From Vampirovibrionaceae bacterium NZW_1234 (lineage in GTDB: Bacteria; Cyanobacteriota; Vampirovibrionia; Vampirovibrionales; JAGQHJ01), in contig JBGUGD010000001.1 of assembly GCA_041697335.1 (NCBI GenBank), positions 64,001 through 128,000 on the forward strand: DNA of 64,000 nucleotides, read 5' to 3'. Made by a program: the position numbers and the translations under genes. Numbering within the stretch: position 1 is the first letter of the stretch; each line of letters opens with the position of its first letter. The notes under the pieces are model-generated. The model was not told the DNA's origin. It saw only the letters and a list, made by a program, of their open reading frames with translations, and did no database searches. Of this stretch, positions 2,046 to 63,492 are shown one piece after another.

Positions 2046-2858
2046 CTAGAAAATCGCGGCATGGTCATTCAGGTAGTGTTCCAGGAGTTTGATAAAAATA
2101 GGCAGAGTGGCCAGAAACACCCCGAGGCCGATACAGGGTTTTAAAGCAAAGCTTAGCTGGAAGACCTGGATTTGTTGTGCCGTTCTATTCACGATCCCGA
2201 GCATCAAATCTACGGTGATGGTGACAATCAGGACAGGGGCAATTAATTGTGCTCCGATGGCAAGGGAGTTGCCGCCCAGTTGAATGAGATAATCAATGCT
2301 GATTTGACTGGCAAAATCCGGGGTCATGCCTTGGATGGGGAAGACTTCAAACGTCCGGTTCAACGCATTGATAAGCCAATAAAATCCGCCCAGATGCAGA
2401 AAAACCATTAAGCCGATGTAGCCGGTGAGTTTTTCTGTTAGTGCCACTTGTTGCCGGGAACTGGGGTCAAACATCATGGCGGAGGACAAGCCTATCTGGT
2501 TGTTCATCAGCGAACCTGCCGAGTTGATACACTCCATAATCATGGAACCGATAAACCCGATGAGCAGACCTACCGTGATGTTGGCAAAAATCTGAATCAA
2601 GTAAGGGAAGAGATCCAGCATGGTTACAGCCCGATTGTGAATGGGATCGCCTGGAAGGTGCCATGCCAGAACAAAGCTCATCAGAAAAGCAATGCCAAGT
2701 TTGATGTTGAAGGGGATATCTTTTCGTCCCAGGATTGGAGCCACCATCACAAAGCCCAACATTCGGCAGAAGACGAGAAAGGTGGTATCCACAATAGCGC
2801 CAAACTGGTGATGAAGAAGGGCTATTTGGCTGATGAGGCCTCCAAACTCCGCTTGCAT
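2046..2858 (-). CDS. fliR: Type III export gate protein FliR/SctT
   Basis: Hydrophobic 270 aa; FCRMLGF..APILG, AGSLMNNQIGL, LGIVNRTAQQIQVFQLSFALK; adjacent to fliQ/fliP. Confidence 0.92.
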   Translation of the reverse strand: MQAEFGGLISQIALLHHQFGAIVDTTFLVFCRMLGFVMVAPILGRKDIPFNIKLGIAFLMSFVLAWHLPGDPIHNRAVTMLDLFPYLIQIFANITVGLLIGFIGSMIMECINSAGSLMNNQIGLSSAMMFDPSSRQQVALTEKLTGYIGLMVFLHLGGFYWLINALNRTFEVFPIQGMTPDFASQISIDYLIQLGGNSLAIGAQLIAPVLIVTITVDLMLGIVNRTAQQIQVFQLSFALKPCIGLGVFLATLPIFIKLLEHYLNDHAAIF

Positions 2859-2864
2859 TCCGTT

Positions 2865-3404
2865 TTATTCCTTCTTGAATTCGGGGGGCTTGGGTAATGT
2901 GCCTGTCGCTCGACGCTTCATGTAAATTTGCTCGCCAACACCCGGCTTGGGAGCCACTCGCGTGCTGTTGACGTTTAGCGTGGAATTATTTTCCGTGAGT
3001 TCGTTGACTTTGGACGATTGCTTCATCATGGCCTGGATTTTGTTTTCACCAGGGACGTGTTTCGGCTCCCGGAAAAAGTCGTCTTTGGCTTTGGCGCCGT
3101 AAGCAATTCGGGGTTTGGGGGGGAGAATCATCAGGGAATCTTTTGGAATGACTTCCAGGCCCAGGTGAAAGGACTCTAAAATAAAATCTCGCATTGCGTC
3201 CATCATGAAAGGACCACCTAAAACAATCAGCATAAACACGCAGACAATCTTGGGTGCAGCCGAGATGGTTTGTTCCTGAACCTGGGTAACCGCCTGAAGA
3301 ATCCCGATGATTAAACCGATACCGGCGGCCAGTAATACGGCGGGCATGGACAAGAGCAGCATAAGCCCGATACCGTGGCTGACATGTTGCATTAATATGT
3401 CCAT
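2865..3404 (-). CDS. fliQ: Type III export gate protein FliQ/SctS with about 90 aa hydrophilic C-terminal extension
   Basis: GLIIGILQAVTQVQEQTISAAPKI signature. Confidence 0.92.
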   Translation of the reverse strand: MDILMQHVSHGIGLMLLLSMPAVLLAAGIGLIIGILQAVTQVQEQTISAAPKIVCVFMLIVLGGPFMMDAMRDFILESFHLGLEVIPKDSLMILPPKPRIAYGAKAKDDFFREPKHVPGENKIQAMMKQSSKVNELTENNSTLNVNSTRVAPKPGVGEQIYMKRRATGTLPKPPEFKKE

Positions 3405-3430
3405 GAACAGTACCTCCTTGGGCGTGCCGG

Positions 3431-4072
3431 TTAATTGTAACTGTTGACGAGGCCGTTAATAATGAGTCCCCATCCGTCCACGGCAATAAAGATGAGGATC
3501 TTGAACGGCAATGAAATAATGGTTGGTGAGAGCATCATCATCCCCAAGGCCAGAAGTACGTTTGCCACCACCAAATCCAGGACAATGAAGGGGATGAAAA
3601 TGAGAAATCCGATTTCGAAGGAGGTGCGCAACTCGCTGACCATGAAGGCGGGGGCTACTTCCCAGAAGCTGAGTTCTTCTACACTTTTTGGAGGTGATTT
3701 ATGGGCGAGTTCCACAAAGTAGGCGACGTCTTGTTGGCGGGTCTGGCGCATCATAAATTCCTGAAGCGGTTGGGCGGCTTCTGTAATGATGGCCACGACA
3801 GATTGTTTTTGCTTGATGGGCACCTCGGCTCGTTCGTACATTTCACCAAACACGGGCCCCATAGTATAGATGGTCATAATCAGAGAAATCCCAACTAAGA
3901 CCACGCCGGGAGGCACCTGTTGTGTCCCCAGCGCGGTTTTGAGAATGGACAAGACAATGACATAACGGGTAAAACTGGTGAGACTGACCAAAATAAAAGG
4001 CAGTAAGCTCAAGGCACCCATCAGGATAATGAGTTGAAGTGCGGGATCCATTTTGCCGAATAACTGTTCCAT
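3431..4072 (-). CDS. fliP: Type III export gate protein FliP/SctR (short form, no N-terminal signal peptide)
   Basis: TSFTRYVIVLSILKTALGTQQVPP, PAFMVSELRTSFEIGF, GMMMLSPTIISLPFK, DGW. Confidence 0.95.
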   Translation of the reverse strand: MEQLFGKMDPALQLIILMGALSLLPFILVSLTSFTRYVIVLSILKTALGTQQVPPGVVLVGISLIMTIYTMGPVFGEMYERAEVPIKQKQSVVAIITEAAQPLQEFMMRQTRQQDVAYFVELAHKSPPKSVEELSFWEVAPAFMVSELRTSFEIGFLIFIPFIVLDLVVANVLLALGMMMLSPTIISLPFKILIFIAVDGWGLIINGLVNSYN

Positions 4073-4077
4073 TGCGG

Positions 4078-4536
4078 CTATTTCCCTCCGAGTTTAAAGC
4101 GATCGGCCAAAATTAATTTGAGGCTGTAGTGGAACCGTTCCTTGAACCCGGCATTGGGGCTCAGCGGTGATGGACTACTGGAATAGTTTGATCCGGTAGT
4201 CAAGCCTGCAACAGTTCCCTCGTCGACTTGTTCGGCCAGAGCCGTTTCGCAAAGGGTCGTGTCAGGTTCTGATTCAAGTGTGGTCAGGTATTCGATTTTG
4301 TCCATGGTTGTTGAGACCAGGACACGCTGGGAACCATAGCGGATGACATATAAATTTTTACGCGGCTCCAAGGCCAATGCCGACTCGACCTGGAGTCCTG
4401 TCCCTGATGGGTTTGATGGCGTGGATGGACCGGTGGGCAGGAGGGATGGATTTTTCTTGAGATAGGCATAGATCAACAGTAAAAAGCCGATGACGCTTAA
4501 GGTTGCCAGGATAAAGTTGGTGAGATAATGGGCCAT
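4078..4536 (-). CDS. fliO: FliO/FliZ-like protein
   Basis: N-terminal TM helix then LQVESALALEPRKNLYVIRYG..RVLV; position upstream of fliP. Confidence 0.75.
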   Translation of the reverse strand: MAHYLTNFILATLSVIGFLLLIYAYLKKNPSLLPTGPSTPSNPSGTGLQVESALALEPRKNLYVIRYGSQRVLVSTTMDKIEYLTTLESEPDTTLCETALAEQVDEGTVAGLTTGSNYSSSPSPLSPNAGFKERFHYSLKLILADRFKLGGK

Positions 4537-5792
4537 TAGGTCCAGTCCTCTTCGTCGTCCATATCGTCAAAATCGGATTCTTCCAGGTTTAAGTCCATCA
4601 AGTCGTTGGCTGGGGGCATCTCTTCCTGCTGATGCATTTCTTCGGGGGCTTGAGATACATGGGGCTCCGTCGGCTGTGAGGCATAGGCCGATTTTTGACT
4701 TCGGTTACCCCGAGGTGGTGAGTCATCGACGCCTAAGATTCGGACACCGAATTTGTCACCAACGACCAGGAGTTCCCCCCAGGCAACCGGATGGCCTTCC
4801 ACTTCAATATGAATTCGGTTTTCCATCAGATCACCCACTTCCACCACCAGACCCTGCTCCATGTCTCTGAGGTGACGAAGCGGGAGTTTGACCGGCTCAA
4901 AGGTGGCGGTGACTTCCACTTCCAGGGTGTCCCAAATGTTTTGTTTGATTTCTGCGTCGTTCGCCATAGCGTCGTATCCTTGTTGTTGTAAATGTTCTGG
5001 GGCATGAAACCGTGGTGGAATGGAGATGTTGACGGGAATGGTTCCCTGGGTGATTGAATCGAGCAGATGCCAGCGGCTGGCATGGCTGTTTTCCAGTAAC
5101 ACCACATCGCCCTCTTCCAGGTTTTGGGCTTCTTCCAATTCCACACGGGTTGAGCCGATGCGAAAGCGGGCTTCCACATCAGCGTGATGAAATCGTTCTT
5201 CCGGCAGATTCCAGACCGGCGGCTGCGGGAGGTCTGGAAATTCGGTTTTAAGGCATGATTGAGGAGCTGTGAGGACAATTTGATTAATCTGTTCCGGCTC
5301 GCTGCTATCAAGTATCCAGACCAGGTGGACCAGTGGGTCATGTTCGGGGAGAGGTGCATGTTTATCGGCTTGTTTCAGAAACATCGGATAGAGGATGTGA
5401 AACAATTTCCTGCTGAAGCGCTCCAAAAGGAACACTTCAAAGTTGCGGATATGGTCCAGAGAAAATTCTTTGTCCTCAGCGGGTTTCCCTAGGGCAGATT
5501 CGAACAGGTGTTGGCAAAGCCCTTCTGATATCCGGAGTTGGGTCCAGCGAATACCGTCTTTGTCGAGGCCTTTTTGAGCGACATAAAAATCTTGCATATG
5601 CCAGTAATAATGAGGCTCTTTGGCCACACTGAACAGGCGGGTCCGAATCTGAAGATTCCAGAATTCATGGAGCAATTGCTCAATGGCTGCCTGAACATGT
5701 GTTCCCGGATACAGCAACTGATGTGGTGAAACATCCCGGATTTCCACCGGGGCTTCAGAATGTTGAACAGGGGGGACTGTAAGACCTTCCAT
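4536..5792 (-). CDS. FliM/FliN (SpoA-domain) C-ring or SctQ-like protein with two SpoA domains
   Basis: SpoA1 (RIGSTRVELEEAQNLEEGDVVLL) and SpoA2 (VEVEGHPVAWGELLVVGDKFGVRI-type motif); ORF is open to 5954, start at 5792 is a best guess. Confidence 0.8.
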   Translation of the reverse strand: MEGLTVPPVQHSEAPVEIRDVSPHQLLYPGTHVQAAIEQLLHEFWNLQIRTRLFSVAKEPHYYWHMQDFYVAQKGLDKDGIRWTQLRISEGLCQHLFESALGKPAEDKEFSLDHIRNFEVFLLERFSRKLFHILYPMFLKQADKHAPLPEHDPLVHLVWILDSSEPEQINQIVLTAPQSCLKTEFPDLPQPPVWNLPEERFHHADVEARFRIGSTRVELEEAQNLEEGDVVLLENSHASRWHLLDSITQGTIPVNISIPPRFHAPEHLQQQGYDAMANDAEIKQNIWDTLEVEVTATFEPVKLPLRHLRDMEQGLVVEVGDLMENRIHIEVEGHPVAWGELLVVGDKFGVRILGVDDSPPRGNRSQKSAYASQPTEPHVSQAPEEMHQQEEMPPANDLMDLNLEESDFDDMDDEEDWT

Positions 5793-6270
5793 CAACGCAC
5801 CATACTTCTCTCCATCCCCTACCTTATCGGTTTGTAGACGCCTCCACATCATCCGGCTGAAGGAAGCCATAGGGCAGGAGGAGGATGGAGGTAGGGTGGA
5901 TCTTGTGTTGAATGAGTGTCGGAATGAGCCAGCGAAAAGTGTTTTTGCCATCAATTATGTTCCCAGGCCAATAGGCTTTCTTAAGCGTAATGGGTTTTCT
6001 GGGATTGCCAAGAATCCTATGTCTGAAGGAGAGCCTTTGGAAAAGTGCCATCACGAAAAAGAGCGGCACTTCTATTGTTTGTTTATGTAAATAAAAGTAA
6101 CAAAATTCGCTATAGGCTCTCTTTGACTAGCACGTTTTTGAGCCTTCCGGTTTTTATTAAGGAAACCTTATATTTATCTTAATTATATCTATCATTGGCA
6201 ACTGCCATAGCAAGCCGATGCTGCTTGTTCAGGAAGAGAAGAGAGAAAGAAAAGTAGGAAGAGAAGGGCA

Positions 6271-8307
6271 ATGATTAATTTAGCGGGTAATTATTTTACA
6301 GCTAACCAGACCCAAAACAATGTTGGAAATTATTCGGCCAACCAAACGCTGAATATGGGCTTTAATTTGGGCGGTGGTACCCAAATACTGGGTGGCGTGC
6401 CTCAACCCCAAGGGGCCTTCCTGCAAGCCTACCCGCAAACTCAATTTGCTAACTTCCAGCAACCACAACCTTTCGCAATGCCCATGAATGGCTATGATCA
6501 AAATTCTACCTGGGGACAAGCCTTTGCACCCATCTATACCCCGGTGTCTGCTCCGCTGACTCCCCCTATTATGATGCCTGCTCCCACAGTGTTTTCGCAG
6601 CCACAGGTACCTTTCTTGACACCCGGAATGTCTTTCGGTTTTCCGTTCAGTATGCCTGTTCACATGCCCTACGTCATGACTCTGCCAGGTGCCTTGCTAC
6701 CCCAACCCCAAGGGCTTTCTGGGATTGCAACCTTTTTACTGGCACTGGTCGCCAAAGAATTGAAGAAACTCGGCAACACGGAAAAGCCTAAAACAGAAAG
6801 TCCCGCACCAGCGCCTGCTCCTCCAGGTGGCGATACACCCGTTGGTGGAAATCCTCCCAATACGCCATTACCGCCGGATGCAGAAGGTCCCAATGATGCC
6901 CCTGGAAACACAGGCGGTACAGATAATAATGGTGGTACCGGCAATACGGGCGGCACTGATAATAACGGTGGTACCGGCAATACGGGTGGTACTGATAATA
7001 ACGGTGGTACCGGCAATACAGGTGGTACTGATAATAACGGTGGTACCGGCAATACAGGTGGTACCAATAATAACGGTGGTGGTGGTAATACCACGCCGGT
7101 GACACCTCCTGCTCCGCCACCTGCCACTGCATCTGACTTATCCTTAACCACGGCAGTAATGCAGCGCTTTGTCTATAATGCCGACTTCAACCAGGATGGT
7201 AAAACCACTCTTGAAGAAGCACAATATGCGGTCACTCAGTTAGGTCGCGAGAACCAAGAGCATCCTAACGTGGAAACCGAGGCCGAGATGCTGGCAGGTC
7301 AGCGACTGGTTGCGAATTTCAGTTTGTTTGATAAAGCCCATGACATTAAGTATTTCAATGATCACAAGGCCCCTGGGGATCAGCCTATCCAGCAAACGGT
7401 GGATCGTAACCGTGGCGGTGTGGATAGTGCCAAGGTGAATATTATTGCAGCCTTGGATGGTCAACAGGCCAATGTCAGTGATACAGACTTTACGAATGCC
7501 AGAGCTGCATTACAAGCAATGGCAGTTCCTGGCCAAGCGTTTAGCGGTGGCATTCAAGCCAATATTTCCCAAGTGGATCTGGAAGAATTCTTCCTGCTCG
7601 CCAGCCCCGATGGTCTGGCTATCCCCAAGGATGAGGCCGAGCACACGCTAAACCTGTTGAAGCAGGCTCCTAATCCGGATGACACTGTACGGCGTCAGAT
7701 TGCTGCCGGCCAACTCATTGTGGATCAATGGGATGTATTCAGTAACGCCAATGGAGTAAGCAACCTGGTAAACGGGTCTGATGCTACTGATGCGGCTCCA
7801 GGGCAGGTGACGGTTGCCAAATTGCAGCTCATCTCTTCCTTGGATGATGATCACACCAAAGTAAGTGCGGGGGACTTTGATACCCTGGGCCTGTACAAGA
7901 ACTTGAAAAACACTGTGCCAGCTAATTTTACGCTGGATACTGAGTCGGCACTTAACGTCTTGCGTCAAGCCGGGGCACACCGCGGTCCTCAGAACGATGC
8001 CGACTTGGTTGTCACCGATCAGGACTTGATTGCCTTCCTGAATCGGACCAACCCCAATACGGCTGAAGCGGATATTGCACGAGTTCTATTGGCGAACAAA
8101 GAGATCTTTGCTCGTCAAATTGTGACCAGCCTGGCCAGCCCCATTCCGGGCAGCGCGTTGAGCACGCCGCCGGATACCCGTTCCTGGTCCTTTATGATTT
8201 CCCGCATTCGTGATGTTGCGGATAATGCCGGTGTTGCGGCTAATATTACCCAAGCCGATGTCGCTGCCAGCACCCCACTGAATCCGCAATTTATTGGTCC
8301 GGCCTAA
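6271..8307 (+). CDS. Hypothetical Pro/Gly/Asn-rich protein with EF-hand-like motif and three internal repeats
   Basis: 678 aa ORF, purine-rich leader, DFNQDGKTTLEE EF-hand-like loop, no signal peptide. Confidence 0.8.
   Translation: MINLAGNYFTANQTQNNVGNYSANQTLNMGFNLGGGTQILGGVPQPQGAFLQAYPQTQFANFQQPQPFAMPMNGYDQNSTWGQAFAPIYTPVSAPLTPPIMMPAPTVFSQPQVPFLTPGMSFGFPFSMPVHMPYVMTLPGALLPQPQGLSGIATFLLALVAKELKKLGNTEKPKTESPAPAPAPPGGDTPVGGNPPNTPLPPDAEGPNDAPGNTGGTDNNGGTGNTGGTDNNGGTGNTGGTDNNGGTGNTGGTDNNGGTGNTGGTNNNGGGGNTTPVTPPAPPPATASDLSLTTAVMQRFVYNADFNQDGKTTLEEAQYAVTQLGRENQEHPNVETEAEMLAGQRLVANFSLFDKAHDIKYFNDHKAPGDQPIQQTVDRNRGGVDSAKVNIIAALDGQQANVSDTDFTNARAALQAMAVPGQAFSGGIQANISQVDLEEFFLLASPDGLAIPKDEAEHTLNLLKQAPNPDDTVRRQIAAGQLIVDQWDVFSNANGVSNLVNGSDATDAAPGQVTVAKLQLISSLDDDHTKVSAGDFDTLGLYKNLKNTVPANFTLDTESALNVLRQAGAHRGPQNDADLVVTDQDLIAFLNRTNPNTAEADIARVLLANKEIFARQIVTSLASPIPGSALSTPPDTRSWSFMISRIRDVADNAGVAANITQADVAASTPLNPQFIGPA
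6904..7083 (+). repeat. Five tandem 36-bp coding repeats (GNTGGTDNNGGT)
   Basis: ggcaatacRggYggtactgataataacggtggtacc units read directly; variation mostly at synonymous positions. Confidence 0.95.
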
Positions 8308-44145: not shown

Positions 44146-45045
44146 ATGTATTCGATGAATCCTTACGGTGGTGGTATCAGTCCCAACGTCGGAGGCTATG
44201 GCTTTCCGCAGTCACCGCGTAGCAGCTCGTCCTCCTCAAGCTATAACAATTACAGTCCTTCAGCAGTTTCGAATTATTCGAATTACAGCCCGTCTGCCTC
44301 ATCGGCATACTCGAATTTTTCAAATTACAGCCCCACGGCGGTGAGTTCCAATTTCTCGCCGAACTACTCGCCGACGCTGAACCAGTATTTGCATAACGAA
44401 AACAAACCGATTTATTACAGCAATTCGACCAACTATTATGGTCAGGAGGGTACCCCGGTGTATAATCCCCCAATGTCGTATTCGCCGCCTGGCGGAAGCT
44501 ATTATCAGGGCGGCACCTATAGCCCCAGCAGCAGTTATTATCAAGGTGGTAATTATCATGGTGGCAACTGGGCCTATGATAACAGCAATTACCACACCTC
44601 GGCTCAGCACAATAACTACAAGAGCGATTTCACCTTTGCCCCGCAAGTCACTCAAATCGGTGACCCCTGGGCTGCCCGTTTCCTGGGCCGTCCCAACGTA
44701 TTTGGATTCAAATCCGTGGGTGACATTGCGTCCAACAATACCCGTCTCGGTGTTGGCGTCAACTCGGTGGGCGACATTAATTCCCGGAACATCTTCAATA
44801 TCAATTCCGGCAACAATTTCATTAATGTCAGCAACCTGACCCAACCCCAGCCTACCCCATTTTACTGTCCACCCGGCTACTATACGCCGTTCTATCTGGA
44901 CCCCACCCAGTATGCAGATTGTCCCCCCGAGTTGTTGCAATACCTAGGCCAATCCTTTGATAGTTACCGAGGAGCTTTCGGCGGCAGCCAAAATACCTCG
45001 ACCAACAACTATAACCGGGTGTTACGCGATTTTACCGATGCCTAA
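44146..45045 (+). CDS. Hypothetical Tyr/Ser/Asn/Pro-rich low-complexity protein
   Basis: AAGGAG RBS, YSP repeats, terminator at about 45088-45122. Confidence 0.8.
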   Translation: MYSMNPYGGGISPNVGGYGFPQSPRSSSSSSSYNNYSPSAVSNYSNYSPSASSAYSNFSNYSPTAVSSNFSPNYSPTLNQYLHNENKPIYYSNSTNYYGQEGTPVYNPPMSYSPPGGSYYQGGTYSPSSSYYQGGNYHGGNWAYDNSNYHTSAQHNNYKSDFTFAPQVTQIGDPWAARFLGRPNVFGFKSVGDIASNNTRLGVGVNSVGDINSRNIFNINSGNNFINVSNLTQPQPTPFYCPPGYYTPFYLDPTQYADCPPELLQYLGQSFDSYRGAFGGSQNTSTNNYNRVLRDFTDA

Positions 45046-52712: not shown

Positions 52713-53384
52713 TCATCCTGAGGTTTGGGAGCGGTTTGAATCCCCTAACAATTGGGCGAGGCGTTGTTCGAGCTTAAGCCAGTCTCCTGCAAGCTGGAGC
52801 AGGCCTGACACGCGTGATCCGATCGGCCTCGGTTGTCTCGGCTGAGAATCGGCCCGTTGTCCTCCAATACCAGAGTCTTGGTCAGTAAAGCGCTGGCCTT
52901 GCCTTTCTGACAGTCTTTGGGAGGAGTTGGAATTGCCTAACAACTGGGCGAGGCGTTGCTCGAGCTTAAGCCAGTCTCCTGCGAGCTGGAGCATGTTTGA
53001 CACGCGTGATCCGATTTGCCTTGCTTGTCTCGGTCGAGAACCAGCCCGTTGCCCGGCAGGATCAGAGCCCTGTTCAGAAAAGAGCCGGCCCTGTGTTTGT
53101 GGCAGGCTTGGGGATGCGAATGGGTCAACCCGGGGTTGACTCAACAACCCCGGATTCGTTCTTTGCCAATTATTTTCAAGGCGTTGTTGTATCTCGAAAT
53201 AATCCTGGACCTGGCCTAAAGCACGTGAGATGTTAAACCCTTGGGGGGTATACATATCCGAGGGGAAAAAGCCAGTTTGTGCTACGTCTTGAACAGCAGC
53301 CCAATTGCTGAGTTTTTCCAGCTCCCGGCTCAGGCGACCCCAGGGCGTCGATCCCATGAAGGAATTGTTGGCATTGCCAAACAT
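52713..53384 (-). CDS. Hypothetical Gln/Ser/Arg-rich protein with internal 64-aa duplication
   Basis: AAGGAG RBS; two copies of IGSRVS..LQLAGDWLKLEQRLAQLLG 192 nt apart. Confidence 0.75.
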   Translation of the reverse strand: MFGNANNSFMGSTPWGRLSRELEKLSNWAAVQDVAQTGFFPSDMYTPQGFNISRALGQVQDYFEIQQRLENNWQRTNPGLLSQPRVDPFASPSLPQTQGRLFSEQGSDPAGQRAGSRPRQARQIGSRVSNMLQLAGDWLKLEQRLAQLLGNSNSSQRLSERQGQRFTDQDSGIGGQRADSQPRQPRPIGSRVSGLLQLAGDWLKLEQRLAQLLGDSNRSQTSG

Positions 53385-53451
53385 GCGGGGCTCCTTCCAT
53401 AGCTTATATCAATGTTTGGAAATAGACGGGAGATGATGTGCCAATTGCTTT

Positions 53452-54126
53452 CTAGGTCAATAATTCAGCTAATCCCTGAACGAGAGGGTTCTCGCCGCCG
53501 GGACGGCCGCCTTCACCTTGGCCGCCTTCGCCCATGATGCGCTCAAGTAAGCCGTTTAGAAGTTGACCCAGAATGCCTTCCGGTCCGTTGCCATTTCCGG
53601 CGCCACGGCCACCCCCGCCATTCTGGTTGGGAATCTGGTTTGGATCCATATTCTGCCGCAGGAACTGCCGGGCTTCGTCGTCATCCATTTCATCGGCCAT
53701 ATCTTCGGCCGTATCGCGATCGACGCCCATTTGTTGTTCCAGCACCCGGGCCACTTCGTCTTCCAGATCGTCGTCATCAATGTTATTGACGCGTTGCTCA
53801 ATGGCATCCTGATCGATGCGATCCTGAAGCAGGGCGGCGGTTAGCTGGCGTAATGCCTGCATTTCCGCCTCCTGAGCGGCCTGGTTGTTATTGTTGGCCC
53901 GCCCTTGTCCGGCGTTGGCGTTGTTGTTGGCATTGCCGTTGCCTTGAACATTATTATTGTTGTTATTGGCATTGTTGTTATTGTTGGTGTTTTCTTCGGG
54001 CCCACCCATGCGGTCTTCCATGGCATCCAGACGGTTGTTCATCCGATCCATGCCCCGTTGCAGATTTTGGGCCATATCTTGCCATGCCGCAGCATTGTTT
54101 CCGTTAATTATGACGTTACCAGCCAT
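53452..54126 (-). CDS. Hypothetical Asn/Gly/Asp-rich, Cys-free (harpin-like) protein
   Basis: GAGGAG RBS; poly-Asn tract; LRQLTAALLQ and ILGQLLNGLL helices. Confidence 0.8.
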   Translation of the reverse strand: MAGNVIINGNNAAAWQDMAQNLQRGMDRMNNRLDAMEDRMGGPEENTNNNNNANNNNNNVQGNGNANNNANAGQGRANNNNQAAQEAEMQALRQLTAALLQDRIDQDAIEQRVNNIDDDDLEDEVARVLEQQMGVDRDTAEDMADEMDDDEARQFLRQNMDPNQIPNQNGGGGRGAGNGNGPEGILGQLLNGLLERIMGEGGQGEGGRPGGENPLVQGLAELLT

Positions 54127-54529
54127 TTGTCGCTCCTCACACGCGTAACTATCTTCTGCCACCGATATCGGTGTCATAAACACTAACGAACCTACATCCT
54201 AAGCGTATAAAAACAAACGTTAAAATTTTTTTGACAGCTTTTTTTAGAATTTTTTTCATCCACTTAAGACGGCTTAAGAATTGGGGGCATATGGGGAGGT
54301 CGGGGGGAGACGGGGCTCTGCCTGTTTTTTTTACACGTCTCTCACACGTTTCTCGCAGGGACAAAGGCGGGTTCTGCTATCAGTGTCGACTGTGGACGCA
54401 TGGTCGGGTTATCAGGCTTGTTGGTGAGGGACCTGGCTGAGGCAGCTCACTTTTTTTGCCGCTACTCAGGAAATGCTTGACGTGCCCGAGTGGAGTTGTT
54501 ATTTTGTGTAAGACTTGATTATGTCTTGT

Positions 54530-56564: not shown

Positions 56565-57062
56565 ATGGCTTTTGGTAATCTTCGAGGTGTCCCTCAACGG
56601 CAACCCAGTGTCAACGGTGGCAACAACCCCATGATGCCTGACATGACCAATGGTGCCAATGGCAACAATTTAATGGCGCAGCTCATTAATAGTCCATCGG
56701 CCAACCCAGGAGCACGTCCTGCTGGCGATGGCCAGGCGCCCGGAGGCGGTAATGCCGGCATTGATCCGCGGCAGATGTTTCAGGATGTGCGTAGCTTTTT
56801 AACCGGTGGTGGTGGCTTGCCTGACTATCTGACCGGTGGGGCCCAAGGCGGCAACGCTGGGACGCCTACAAATCTGGGTGAGGGGCTGCGCGGCATTTTT
56901 GGCAATGGCTCGAATAACGGGGCCCAGACACCGGGTGCCGATGCGTTGGCTCAGCGGCCTGGTGGTCCCAATTTAGGCCAGAACCCCGGGCTTCAGGCCA
57001 TGGGTGACATCTTTGATATGACTCGGCGCCTGGATCTGCAATCGGGGGCTTCCGGCATGTAA
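56565..57062 (+). CDS. Hypothetical Gly/Asn/Pro-rich, Cys-free protein
   Basis: GGAGG RBS; 165 aa low complexity. Confidence 0.75.
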   Translation: MAFGNLRGVPQRQPSVNGGNNPMMPDMTNGANGNNLMAQLINSPSANPGARPAGDGQAPGGGNAGIDPRQMFQDVRSFLTGGGGLPDYLTGGAQGGNAGTPTNLGEGLRGIFGNGSNNGAQTPGADALAQRPGGPNLGQNPGLQAMGDIFDMTRRLDLQSGASGM

Positions 57063-57441
57063 TCGCTTGCTATGCCTGCTTTGAAGGCCTACTGGGGCTT
57101 TTTACCGGGTTTTCTGATCCATTTCCATCGGGCCTGGTGAGTCACCGGAAAATAGGGATTGACACGCTTTTTCGGTATTCTTGTGTCAGGTTGGGCTTGG
57201 GATCTTAATGAATCCCTAATGTTTGACCTGACACAAATTATTGCTTTGGGTGTTTTTATATAAACACAAGGTGAAAATAACTCACCGACTCCCAACTCTC
57301 TCTCTCGTTTCTCGTGTGTGTGATAAAAACCCCTTTTTTCATCCCGAATGAATGATGCCGGATAAGCCCATTATCGTGTGCATTGTTTTTCCCTGATAAA
57401 TCAACCGTGTGTATGTGTGTGTGTTAAGGAGGTTCTCTGAA

Positions 57442-58164
57442 ATGGTTATCGCTCGTCCAATCGGTGGTCGTCCCACGACCCCGCCCACTCGTCCTACGAC
57501 GCCCCCCAGACCGACGACTCCCCCAACAACCCCGTCGCCAACCACGCCGCCCGTGACCGGGACTAGCAATAACGGCGACCGGACGTTGATGCTTCAGATT
57601 TTATTGCTCCTGTTGCAAATGATTATGAAAATGCAGCAGACCCCCCGCTTTCCCTTCGGTGCCGGCGGTGGTTATAACCGAGCCTTCGGTGGTGGTTTAA
57701 GCGCTGGCTCGGGAAGCAGTTCCTCTCCCCGGTTCCCGAATTCGCTGTTCCCCTCGTTCAGCAATTCGCCGACCCTGCCTTTGGCGCCGCAACGCTTGGA
57801 TTCCCCATTTCGAAATACCGGTGACCTGACCCTGGATCGCTTAGTTGCGCCAGGCACCCCGGTGGCTCCCAATGACTATAACAGCACGGATTTTCTGACC
57901 GGCTTGAGCCAGTTTACCTCGCCATTCGGGCGACAGGTTGGGCCCAACACCACGCTGGAAGAAGCCCGAAATGCAACGCTGGCCGTACAATCCTACCTGC
58001 CCAGCAATATCAACAAGCAGCTGAACCTTGGATTGTTGCTCACCCAGTTGAATGCACGGGATCCTCAGCCTCTGGATCAACCGGAATACGCCCAGGCGCT
58101 GTTCGACCTGACGGGTAACATTGACCCTCAAACCCAGGCGCTGTTCAGAATCCCCGGTTTCTAG
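57442..58164 (+). CDS. Hypothetical Pro/Thr-rich protein with LQILLLLLQMIMKM helix
   Basis: AAGGAGG RBS; PTTPP repeats. Confidence 0.78.
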   Translation: MVIARPIGGRPTTPPTRPTTPPRPTTPPTTPSPTTPPVTGTSNNGDRTLMLQILLLLLQMIMKMQQTPRFPFGAGGGYNRAFGGGLSAGSGSSSSPRFPNSLFPSFSNSPTLPLAPQRLDSPFRNTGDLTLDRLVAPGTPVAPNDYNSTDFLTGLSQFTSPFGRQVGPNTTLEEARNATLAVQSYLPSNINKQLNLGLLLTQLNARDPQPLDQPEYAQALFDLTGNIDPQTQALFRIPGF

Positions 58165-60770: not shown

Positions 60771-61610
60771 TTATTTCCAGAGCCGTTTCCAGGCACTTGA
60801 GATTTTTTGCCCAACAGCCGATGCCGCATTGGAGACCTTTTCAGCGGCAGTGCTGACGGCATTGGAAATCTGGCTTGAGGAGACTTTGCCTACACCTGGA
60901 ATAGTGGCTGTAACGCCTTCCTTGGTGCTGTAGCCGACACCGACTTCAACGCCCTTGATTTTGACCGAGGCGTCAACAAATTCGCCTCGCTCCTCAGACT
61001 TTCCGGCAGTGACGCCCACTTCGGCATTCAACTTCTTGCCCAGGCCGACTTCGACTTTGGCCTCGACCGACTTTTCGCCGGGCTTGTCGGTGACAATGAC
61101 ACTGGGACTGCAGCTGACCGGGCCAACTTTTCCTTCCACCTTGGCCCCGTATTTGCCGTCTTCGCCGGTGTATACTGTGGCGGCCCCGCCTACGGACGCA
61201 TCGATTCCGGCGACACCGACTTTGCCGATGGCAGCGACTTCGGTTTTTTCTTTGCTGACGTTGGCGCCAAGTTTTGCGGAACCTTCCAACGGAACACCTT
61301 CAAATGTTGTGGTGCTTTTCACCTCGGCCATGGCGCCAACGCCGTCTTTGGCATTGCAGTTGGCTTTGGCACTTGCGCCCAAGGAGCCGGTCATGTCATA
61401 GCCGTTTACCTTGGCTTTCCAGTCCGCCCCGGCAGCAGCACCGGCCTTGGGGCCATCTGCGCCATTCGAGGCATAGGCCTCGGTGGTGATTTTTTCATCG
61501 TAATTTGTGACGTTGATCTTTTTTTCAGCAGGCTTCCTGTCCGAAGGAACTGCATGCAACGGCGCGCCATAGCTTTTCGCATATGGCTTTACCCCTGAGG
61601 ATAAGCTCAT
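60771..61610 (-). CDS. Hypothetical Gly/Ala/Val/Lys-rich beta-repeat protein
   Basis: GGAGG RBS; alternating hydrophobic strands; amphipathic C-terminal helix. Confidence 0.75.
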   Translation of the reverse strand: MSLSSGVKPYAKSYGAPLHAVPSDRKPAEKKINVTNYDEKITTEAYASNGADGPKAGAAAGADWKAKVNGYDMTGSLGASAKANCNAKDGVGAMAEVKSTTTFEGVPLEGSAKLGANVSKEKTEVAAIGKVGVAGIDASVGGAATVYTGEDGKYGAKVEGKVGPVSCSPSVIVTDKPGEKSVEAKVEVGLGKKLNAEVGVTAGKSEERGEFVDASVKIKGVEVGVGYSTKEGVTATIPGVGKVSSSQISNAVSTAAEKVSNAASAVGQKISSAWKRLWK

Positions 61611-62101: not shown

Positions 62102-62368
62102 ATGGTTCCGCATTCCAAAGATGAATTGCAACAACGTAAGGAAGAGCTTCAGAAAAACGCTGAGATTGCCTATACGCAAGTTCCAACCCAGGAAGAGATG
62201 CTGAATGGAGGCAAGCCCGTTGAAAAACCGGCCGATAAAGAAGAGAATCTGAAAAAAACCGAGAAGTCCCAGGAGACGGGGCACAAGCATCACGACCAGG
62301 CGTTAGCCCAGGATATTGATGAGGCGCTTTACGAAGCGGCGCAACAAGGCAATATTGGCGGTGATTAG
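62102..62368 (+). CDS. Hypothetical acidic small protein
   Basis: GAGGAGG RBS; 88 aa. Confidence 0.7.
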   Translation: MVPHSKDELQQRKEELQKNAEIAYTQVPTQEEMLNGGKPVEKPADKEENLKKTEKSQETGHKHHDQALAQDIDEALYEAAQQGNIGGD

Positions 62369-63492
62369 GACTTGGGCTTGGGTTTTGCGCTTTTTTGCAG
62401 GGGACGATTTTGTTCGTCCAGTTCAAAAATCCAGCGTGATAAGGCATAGGCCGTGTTCAAAATAATAAGCGATACGCTGTCGCCAGGTTGAATATTAACT
62501 TCCTGTTTGTCCTCTTGACGTGTGGCTCGCTTAAAGCCTTCGCTGAGATCGGCATTGGCGGCTGTGTTCTCCGCATTGCTTGAACTGGTGGATGTTTCCT
62601 GAGCTGCTCCTCCCGAGTTCAAGAGCGACGTGTCAAAGATTGCCGCAGGCAGACCGTCTTTTGCCAACTGTTCGTTGGTCTTGTCTTTCAATATCGGAAG
62701 AATTGGGGCGGCAATTTTTTCATGAAACATCAAAACACCCACTTGCAAGGGCTCATACTGTGAGACCACGATTTTGAAACGGCCCAAGGTGTTGGTTTCC
62801 AGATACATGACGACCGACATATCACGTTCCTGGCCTTCTTCGCCGCCACTGCCGTCTTCAAAGGACAGGTCCATTTTCTGGGGTGGTACCAGGGGATAAA
62901 TGGGCAGGTAAAGCAGTACGAGGGTTTCGGTCGCGTGCATGGGGGATTGCTTTATTTTCTCACTCATCTTGTCAAGGGTCTTCACCAGCTCGGCCACTTG
63001 CGGGCCACTTTGGGTTTGACTGATGGGAGAGGCCTGAAGGAGTTTCATGAGCTTGGATTTGGCTTCATCCGTATTTTTTCCCAGGAGCTTCTGCATCTCA
63101 TCCAGGGGAATGGTTAATTCGTTGGCATTGTCTTGAATGACCTGTTTAAGTGTTTGTTTCAGGCTTTTTTTCAACGTTTCGGGCGTGGCTTCCAGGGCCA
63201 TCATCATCAGTGTGGTCCGAAGCTCTTCGGGAAGCTTCATGGCATCTTTCAAAAAAGTTGCAACCTCATCGGCCGGAAGACGTACCGATTCATCGGCAAA
63301 CAAAGCCGCCATGGTGAGCTTGGCAAGCTGTTGCTGCAACGTGGGAGGCCCTGTTGGAATGGGAGTGCTGGGAACGCCAATGTCGTTTGAACCGCCACTA
63401 ATCAGTTGCTGCGCCTGGCTCAGCAAGTTTACAAGATTGAATTTGGGAAAACCGGCGTTTGACATCATCAGCCTCATCGCGCTCTTGTTCAT
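62365..63492 (-). CDS. Hypothetical protein with FliK/SctP-like C-terminal region
   Basis: Helical Leu/Gln-rich N-part then LYLPIYPL and VMYLETNTLGRFKIVV, resembling the hook-length-control C domain; exact start uncertain. Confidence 0.5.
   Translation of the reverse strand: MNKSAMRLMMSNAGFPKFNLVNLLSQAQQLISGGSNDIGVPSTPIPTGPPTLQQQLAKLTMAALFADESVRLPADEVATFLKDAMKLPEELRTTLMMMALEATPETLKKSLKQTLKQVIQDNANELTIPLDEMQKLLGKNTDEAKSKLMKLLQASPISQTQSGPQVAELVKTLDKMSEKIKQSPMHATETLVLLYLPIYPLVPPQKMDLSFEDGSGGEEGQERDMSVVMYLETNTLGRFKIVVSQYEPLQVGVLMFHEKIAAPILPILKDKTNEQLAKDGLPAAIFDTSLLNSGGAAQETSTSSSNAENTAANADLSEGFKRATRQEDKQEVNIQPGDSVSLIILNTAYALSRWIFELDEQNRPLQKSAKPKPKS

Follow-up and report, generated by a model that had tools for sequence, protein, structure and literature searches.

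A probable motor-less, flagellum-derived type III machine in Vampirovibrionia and its relation to injectisomes

In the work of Abby and Rocha (2012; PMC3459982), FlgB, FlgC and FliE define the flagellum. According to the same source, the Myxococcales non-flagellar type III secretion system (NF-T3SS) constitutes the earliest non-flagellar branch and lacks FlgBCDEK, FliEG, FlgH and MotAB. Incomplete flagellar gene sets have been taken as loss: one gut genome that has flagellar genes yet neither filament nor L/P rings was regarded as a case of reduction (PMC3787301), gene subsets were explained likewise (PMC4040986), and partial sets are also mentioned in PMC5877343. Here we analyze a stretch of 64,000 nucleotides, termed the window, from Vampirovibrionaceae bacterium NZW_1234 (GCA_041697335.1, contig JBGUGD010000001.1, positions 64,001–128,000), in which a five-gene spoA-fliO-fliP-fliQ-fliR operon forms part of a second export set (set 2) that exists beside the complete flagellum (set 1) of the same genome. 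We consider it probable, judging from gene content, distribution and phylogeny, that set 2 is a conserved motor-less type III machine of flagellar descent that is kept independently and would build a rod-based conduit and secrete through it. Hook-basal bodies without filament and motor are present in Buchnera-type endosymbionts, where they have been proposed to secrete and stem from the recent reduction of the only flagellum; set 2, in contrast, is an old paralogue accompanying a complete flagellum across three deep lineages.

Set 2 resembles flagella in comprising FliO, FliE, FlgB/C/F/G, FliF, FliH/I/J as well as FliK-, FlgE- and FliA-like genes, in possessing the whole export core (FliPQR, FlhAB, FliI, FliF) and in the gene orders fliE-fliF-(fliG)-fliH and fliM/N-fliO-P-Q-R; all three proteins used to define flagella are encoded in its operon on contig C32. 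On the other hand, its FliM and FliN are fused without an evident CheY peptide, its hook-like protein is only 280 amino acids (aa) long, it occurs in 54 genomes in which no flagellin, MotB or FliG-C above cut-off was found, three of three such genomes tested lack FlgI, and in the trees it is separated from the flagellum that the same cells possess. With injectisomes (Ysc, Inv/Mxi-Spa and Rhizobiales types) set 2 shares homologues of SctJ/N/Q/R/S/T/U/V, a signal-less SctR-like FliP, an SctQ-like fusion with a predicted internal start, the lack of a motor and a neighboring position in all five trees, but it keeps rod, FliE, FliO and full FliF and is spread over several chromosomal loci. SctC, SctD, SctF, tip and translocon proteins were not found among its annotated neighbors, a genome-wide profile search for needle, SctD and translocon not having been part of the analysis. 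By the membership tests for either group, set 2 is neither a flagellum nor an injectisome. Like the Myxococcales NF-T3SS (PMC3459982), it is non-motile, devoid of a linked secretin, has a proposed role in translocation and was earlier read as a relic. Unlike that system, it has kept FlgB, FlgC and FliE together with an FlgE-like gene and a probable truncated FliG and therefore looks one step closer to the flagellum.

The operon consists of five open reading frames (ORFs) on the minus strand at 2046–5954, the products of which all match Pfam models above cut-off. Its features are:

4536–5954, minus strand: SctQ-like fusion of FliM and FliN, a C-ring or sorting-platform protein (matches Pfam FliMN_C in two stretches, E 1e-19)
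4965–4981, minus strand: predicted internal translation start of the fusion gene, Met330 (ATG 4967–4965, Shine-Dalgarno-like AAGGA 4981–4977; orthologue conservation)
4078–4536, minus strand: FliO, export-gate assembly chaperone (Pfam FliO, E 6e-8, above cut-off)
3431–4072, minus strand: signal-less FliP/SctR, 213 aa (passes the cut-offs of TIGR01103 (fliP), TIGR01102 (yscR) and PRK12797 (SctR))
2865–3404, minus strand: FliQ/SctS, 179 aa, with a Pro/Lys-rich C-terminal extension of about 100 aa (Pfam Bac_export_3, residues 5–75)
2046–2858, minus strand: FliR/SctT (Pfam Bac_export_1, E 2e-56)

An earlier note on this DNA had described the same operon and had pointed out that flhA/flhB, rod, hook and motor genes are missing beside it; none is present in the ORF lists of the window, where the operon is flanked by a nucleotidyltransferase gene and an orphan. 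The designation as a stand-alone cluster is correct locally but not for the genome, in which set 2 is made up of four loci, the window operon and others on contigs C29, C30 and C32. The FliP domain starts at residue 17, as opposed to residue 91 in the flagellar FliP of the same genome, and thus leaves no room for a signal peptide. The shortness of the protein, which the note had also emphasized, is not diagnostic, as flagellar FliP from Bacillus and Chloroflexota outgroups likewise comprises 219–221 aa. Identity between the two paralogues in the genome amounts to 43% for FliP and 23% for FliR. In all 20 orthologous loci FliP has 212–237 aa and FliQ 123–321 aa, and the double length reported for FliQ reflects a tail of about 100 aa following a domain that ends at residue 75–79, an extension kept in 20/20 orthologues. 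The window FliQ and FliR remain below both the flagellar and the injectisome NCBIfam cut-offs, and so does set-2 FlhA with the respective equivalog models; for set-2 FliP and FlhB, the scores exceed curated cut-offs.

The genome (3.7 Mb, 94.75% complete) encodes two each of FliP, FlhA, FlhB and the export ATPase, so that the second, canonical fliPQR for which a check had been suggested does exist. Set 1 is a complete flagellum with fliPQR-flhB-flhA, flgBC-fliEFGHI, flgFGAHIJ-N-K-L, fliJK-flgDE, motAB-fliL-fliM-fliY and three flagellin genes. Outside the window, set 2 comprises the C32 operon flgF-flgG-flgB-flgC-lytic transglycosylase-fliE-fliF-X-fliH-flhA-fliI, flhB followed by a FliA-like sigma factor gene on C29, and fliJ, a FliK-like gene (weak match, E 0.006) and the FlgE-like gene on C30, the product of which matches hook models in two stretches with the middle skipped. 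It is thus more than an export gate, with rod, FliE and hook-like genes retained. In genome G001 the genes of C32 and C30 form one operon, which ties these two units together; from co-occurrence and tree position we infer that the window operon and the C29 flhB belong to the same machine. FliF is full-length, including the C-terminal M-ring domain. Protein X, encoded between fliF and fliH, features a new helical domain followed by putative FliG N and M domains and is probably a FliG without torque domain. The helical domain also occurs in stand-alone paralogues of about 160–320 aa (e.g., G147:C1:402426-402896 and G073:C22:82274-83407), which are located immediately upstream of X in family f3 and elsewhere in f7.

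Within the class we sampled 151 genomes. Named Gastranaerophilales/Melainabacteria records group with families f7 and f4 in the trees and thereby back the name Vampirovibrionia used in the earlier note. Flagellin is encoded in 63 of them, i.e., in the genome studied here and in all members of f1, f2, f3, f4, f6 and f11, and 61 of these 63 have at least two FliP. Retention in non-flagellated relatives, another check proposed beforehand, was observed: all 54 genomes of f7, f8 and f9 contain set-2 FlhA as well as rod/hook genes, 52 of them with a single FliP, and flagellin, the MotB plug and FliG-C above cut-off were found in none of the 54 (the stator scan covered MotB). The FlhA proteins of these families are 42–89% identical to set-2 FlhA, compared to 36–39% for flagellar FlhA, among the matches listed. 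Non-flagellated G147, for example, possesses flgF-G-B-C and fliE. FlgI is absent from all three non-flagellated genomes of the class tested, and most flagellated ones carry just one FliG-C. One named f7 genome contains both sets; the 34 genomes of f5 and f10 contain neither. Four single-pair estimates of the ratio of non-synonymous to synonymous substitutions (dN/dS) for f7 and f9 amount to about 0.01–0.08, with dS near saturation and a fifth pair yielding no dS, and indicate that set-2 genes are under purifying selection. The idea that the flagellum gave rise to a non-motile export system is supported. The fliPQR genes of the window are not the only copies in the genome, they branch outside ordinary flagellar clades, and set 2 persists without flagellin, MotB and FliG-C; sole copies, a position inside flagellar clades and strict co-occurrence with fliC/flgE/motAB had been named in advance as speaking against this idea.

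Phylogenetic analysis was based on single-gene trees for FlhA (128, 60 and 295 rows), FliI (57), FliP (35) and FliR (35) and on a concatenation of FliP, FliQ, FliR, FlhA and FliI (33 rows, 1650 columns) under LG+C20+F+G4 with posterior mean site frequencies (PMSF). The trees are unrooted, those used to judge whether set 2 branches within flagellar clades comprise 33–45 taxa, the PMSF guide tree had the same split as the result, and the final matrix contained four injectisome taxa, none of them a named Chlamydia, Hrp or SPI-2 system. The FlhA, FliI, FliP and FliR trees each separated set 2 and the injectisomes from ordinary flagella, including set 1 of the same genomes, with support of 95, 92, 99 and 80, respectively, and placed set 2 outside the ordinary flagellar clades in line with the phylogenetic check that the earlier note had called for. 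In the concatenation this split received 99.7 in the Shimodaira–Hasegawa-like approximate likelihood ratio test (SH-aLRT) and 100 in ultrafast bootstrapping (UFBoot), and set 2 formed one group (97.6/99) adjoining Myxococcota and Ysc-type systems. Myxococcota SctV-type rows grouped with injectisomes, outside set 2. Set-2 FlhA follows family groups, which suggests vertical descent. The independent repurposing in Vampirovibrionia that had been proposed found no support in this form: a duplication confined to this class was rejected in the approximately unbiased (AU) test (p = 7.5e-5), the same set occurs in the sister class and in Margulisbacteria, and the trees place it beside injectisomes, so that its origin is older than supposed. 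A third, divergent export set with the order fliP-sigma-...-fliQ-fliR-flhB-flhA is found in some Betaproteobacteria (L203, Janthinobacterium; P0167 cluster, Achromobacter); FlhA trees place it close to set 2, whereas the concatenation does not.

Beyond the class, 301 genomes of the phylum were scanned. FlhA is present, mostly twice, in 43 of 45 genomes from seven other families, here termed the sister class and presumably corresponding to Sericytochromatia, and was found in none of 128 genomes of other families. The second locus of the sister class reads flgF-G-A-H-I-J-sigma-flgB-C-fliE-fliF-flhA without fliG in six of seven double-set loci fetched and probably in the seventh. Among Margulisbacteria, 49 of 51 genomes contain FlhA, 13 of them with two matches. 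Flagellin is lacking in four of four single-set genomes of family f18 and in five of five single-set Margulisbacteria and present in eight of eight double-set genomes, and a FliG of 154 aa in G501 consists of N and M domains only. The set-2 versions of these groups keep FlgA/H/I and FlgD, have separate FliM and FliN, and their FliP carries an N-terminal extension; in L272, L274 and L276 from the sister class, the FliP ORFs reach 389–413 aa with a FliO-like N-terminal part and are possible FliO-FliP fusions. Two observations weigh against a non-motile state outside Vampirovibrionia, namely MotB in 4/4 genomes of f18 and in 1/5 single-set Margulisbacteria and a flagellin-like gene in one set-2 locus.

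The position of set 2 next to injectisomes points to shared ancestry rather than to an independent event. We tentatively suggest, with a confidence falling just short of even, that set 2 is a third type III secretion lineage, representing the extant sister group of the injectisomes as a whole, the flagellum having been duplicated before Margulisbacteria and Cyanobacteriota separated. One copy would then have lost torque domain, stator and filament while keeping rod, hook-like and ring genes; Margulisbacteria and sister-class versions would still use L/P rings, lost in the Vampirovibrionia version, and injectisomes would stem from the same stock by loss of the rod and later gain of secretins. 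The non-photosynthetic ancestor of cyanobacteria would in that case have had two type III machines. Regarding origin only, independent exaptation, with the grouping due to long-branch attraction or convergence once motility no longer constrained the genes, has a chance that we likewise put slightly under one half. The stems of set 2 and of the injectisomes are long (0.4–0.65) and the branch uniting them is short (0.13), and Dayhoff-6 recoding lowers the support to 88. The small number of injectisome taxa, the lack of a root and the use of a guide tree already showing this split to obtain site frequencies also favor this explanation. Since neither the signal-less FliP nor the fusion occurs in the sets of the sister class and of Margulisbacteria, these traits are probably convergent with SctR and SctQ. 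On the other hand, the split recurs in four single-gene trees and the concatenation, it stays at 99.7–99.8 when the 20–40% fastest sites or all Vampirovibrionia rows are dropped, and the AU test rejected a clade that unites all Cyanobacteriota/Margulisbacteria copies to the exclusion of injectisomes (p = 0.003). A direct sister relationship between Vampirovibrionia set 2 and injectisomes was not rejected (p = 0.065).

Irrespective of its origin, the machine may be pictured as follows. FliP/Q/R-FlhB-FlhA would be situated within the FliF ring and draw their energy from FliI/H/J and the proton motive force. The FliM-FliN fusion, together with the FliN half produced from it by internal translation, would make up a C-ring or sorting platform, with X as the link to FliF. 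With the aid of the transglycosylase, FliE and the rod proteins would form a hollow conduit through the wall, which the short hook-like protein would lengthen to an extent set by the FliK-like ruler, before FlhB switches to late substrates. Without stator partner, filament and CheY input, the rod would act as secretion channel rather than as drive shaft. Proteins exported in this way at the cell surface would likely serve interactions with prey, a host or neighboring cells. Neither an L/P ring (in the non-flagellated genomes tested) nor a linked secretin (at the loci read) was found for Vampirovibrionia set 2; secretins are present in five of five genomes tested, away from the set-2 loci, and the four secretin loci inspected have no export genes within 1.5 kb. 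The conduit may reach no further than the periplasm, or it may make use of an unlinked secretin. These absences, together with that of needle and translocon genes at the loci read, would fit a non-secretory or assembly-only structure without separate substrates, in which rod and short hook form an immobile strut in the periplasm, a short appendage for adhesion or a platform for membrane tubes; a nanotube role of the flagellar export core has been proposed and is disputed. We regard such a structure as unlikely, since the components kept include FlhB, a FliK-like ruler, the entire ATPase complex and an SctQ-like platform, an inventory that would suit the orderly export of at least two classes of substrates.

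It appears very improbable that set 2 is another true flagellum, of lateral or conditional type, for which set 1 supplies filament, stators and rings. The presence of rod, FliE, hook-like, FliK-like, FliJ and FliA-like genes, the two motAB pairs of this genome and FlgA/H/I plus FlgD in the versions from the sister class and Margulisbacteria speak for it, but flagellin, MotB and FliG-C above cut-off were found in none of the 54 genomes of f7–f9 that keep set 2, FlgI is missing from three of three such genomes tested, and most flagellated genomes have a single FliG-C. The second motAB pair (G000:C10:135698-137695), with a long MotB of 405 aa, is linked to neither export set. The published reading for non-flagellated Gastranaerophilales, a decaying remnant of a lost flagellum, is hardly credible and largely refuted, for although partial sets of gut genomes were called ongoing loss (PMC3787301; PMC4040986) and set-2 operons are fragmented in several families, the genes kept throughout f7–f9 under purifying selection are the set-2 paralogues and not the flagellar copies, and the same paralogues sit alongside a complete flagellum in other families.

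The fusion of FliM- and FliN-like domains, already recognized in the earlier note, comprises a FliM middle domain, SpoA1, a linker, a FliN-like SpoA2 forming the C-terminal end and an acidic tail. It aligns with the FliM of the same genome over the middle domain and the first SpoA (hhalign, probability 92%), starting at FliM residue 87, and its best NCBIfam match is SctQ, below cut-off. The ORF has 472 aa from the first TTG; the alignment of 15 orthologues places the true start probably 35–55 codons downstream. The motif that we take to be the N-terminal CheY-binding peptide is shown by the flagellar FliM of the genome and is not evident in the fusion. The fusion gene was found in 14 of 20 set-2 fliP loci fetched. 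A linker ATG is conserved in 15/15 orthologues, with best anti-Shine-Dalgarno pairing of ≤ −4 kcal/mol in 12/15; in this pairing test 12 of 22 linker ATGs were positive compared to 20 of 125 other internal ATGs. Initiation at Met330 would yield a FliN-like product of 143 aa. An internal start also exists in injectisome SctQ (PMC4832279), that of the fusion being a prediction.

The same genes are already in print, filed as flagella or as loss. Under 'Flagella', Table S3 of PMC4451040 has fliP, flhA and fliF in two copies each as well as a spoA-fliO-fliP-fliQ-fliR run, and Table S2 of that paper (predicted highly expressed and alien genes) contains a FliI/YscN ATPase under a tag differing from that of fliI in Table S3. 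The shared flagellar gene list of PMC3787301 runs in set-2 order, and, judging from locus-tag order, the flagellar supertree of that paper may have been built largely on the set-2 paralogue. In the accessible parts of the literature no paper was found that recognizes set 2 as a separate system, although unread supplements and subscription journals may contain one. Screens that sort by rod genes versus secretin would label set 2 a flagellum and overlook it, and the 'partial flagella' of gut Melainabacteria look like a conserved secretion machine rather than decay. So far, the step from flagellum to injectisome has been argued from trees, and the earliest intermediate in PMC3459982, that of Myxococcales, has already lost all rod genes. 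A widespread motor-less system with rod, FliE, FliO and cut-down FliG beside injectisomes would, if the placement is true, represent a stage that precedes it and is open to imaging and experiment, and set 2 may thus show the route from flagella to injection devices. One host group includes the cultured predator Vampirovibrio chlorellavorus, whose gene table contains both sets (PMC4451040, Table S3).

Several further genes deserve mention. Set-2 fliI is immediately followed by two orphans that resemble each other (156 and 169 aa; L001:8784-9857, G000:C32); they have no match in Pfam or NCBIfam and are candidate substrates or chaperones. There are two divergent FliA-like sigma factors, 42% identical (L009:10873-11601 and L369:951-1631), one of them behind set-2 flhB; a FliA-like gene is also found within sister-class and Margulisbacteria set-2 operons, an association that suggests a dedicated regulon. 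A lone 122-aa gene with the rod N-terminal motif is located away from both sets (L006:9090-9458, G000:C20). Paralogues consisting of the FlhA C-terminal domain only occur in several genomes (L036:5998-6867; G418:C13:63574-64626; extra matches in G175 and G169) and are probably the second FlhA match of all 124 f7 genomes (E ≤ 1e-30); f7 members outside the 151-genome sample with a third match are probably flagellated. Within the window, an orphan of 678 aa at 6271–8307 (plus strand), without Pfam match, contains an Asn/Gly/Thr tandem repeat near 6900–7090, and further low-complexity orphans are located at 44146–45045, 52713–54183, 56565–58164 and 60771–61610. An orphan of 375 aa at 62365–63492 (minus strand), for which a Pfam search gave no significant match, may be another set-2 component, as its homologue in G001 (25% identity) immediately precedes the flgF operon of set 2.

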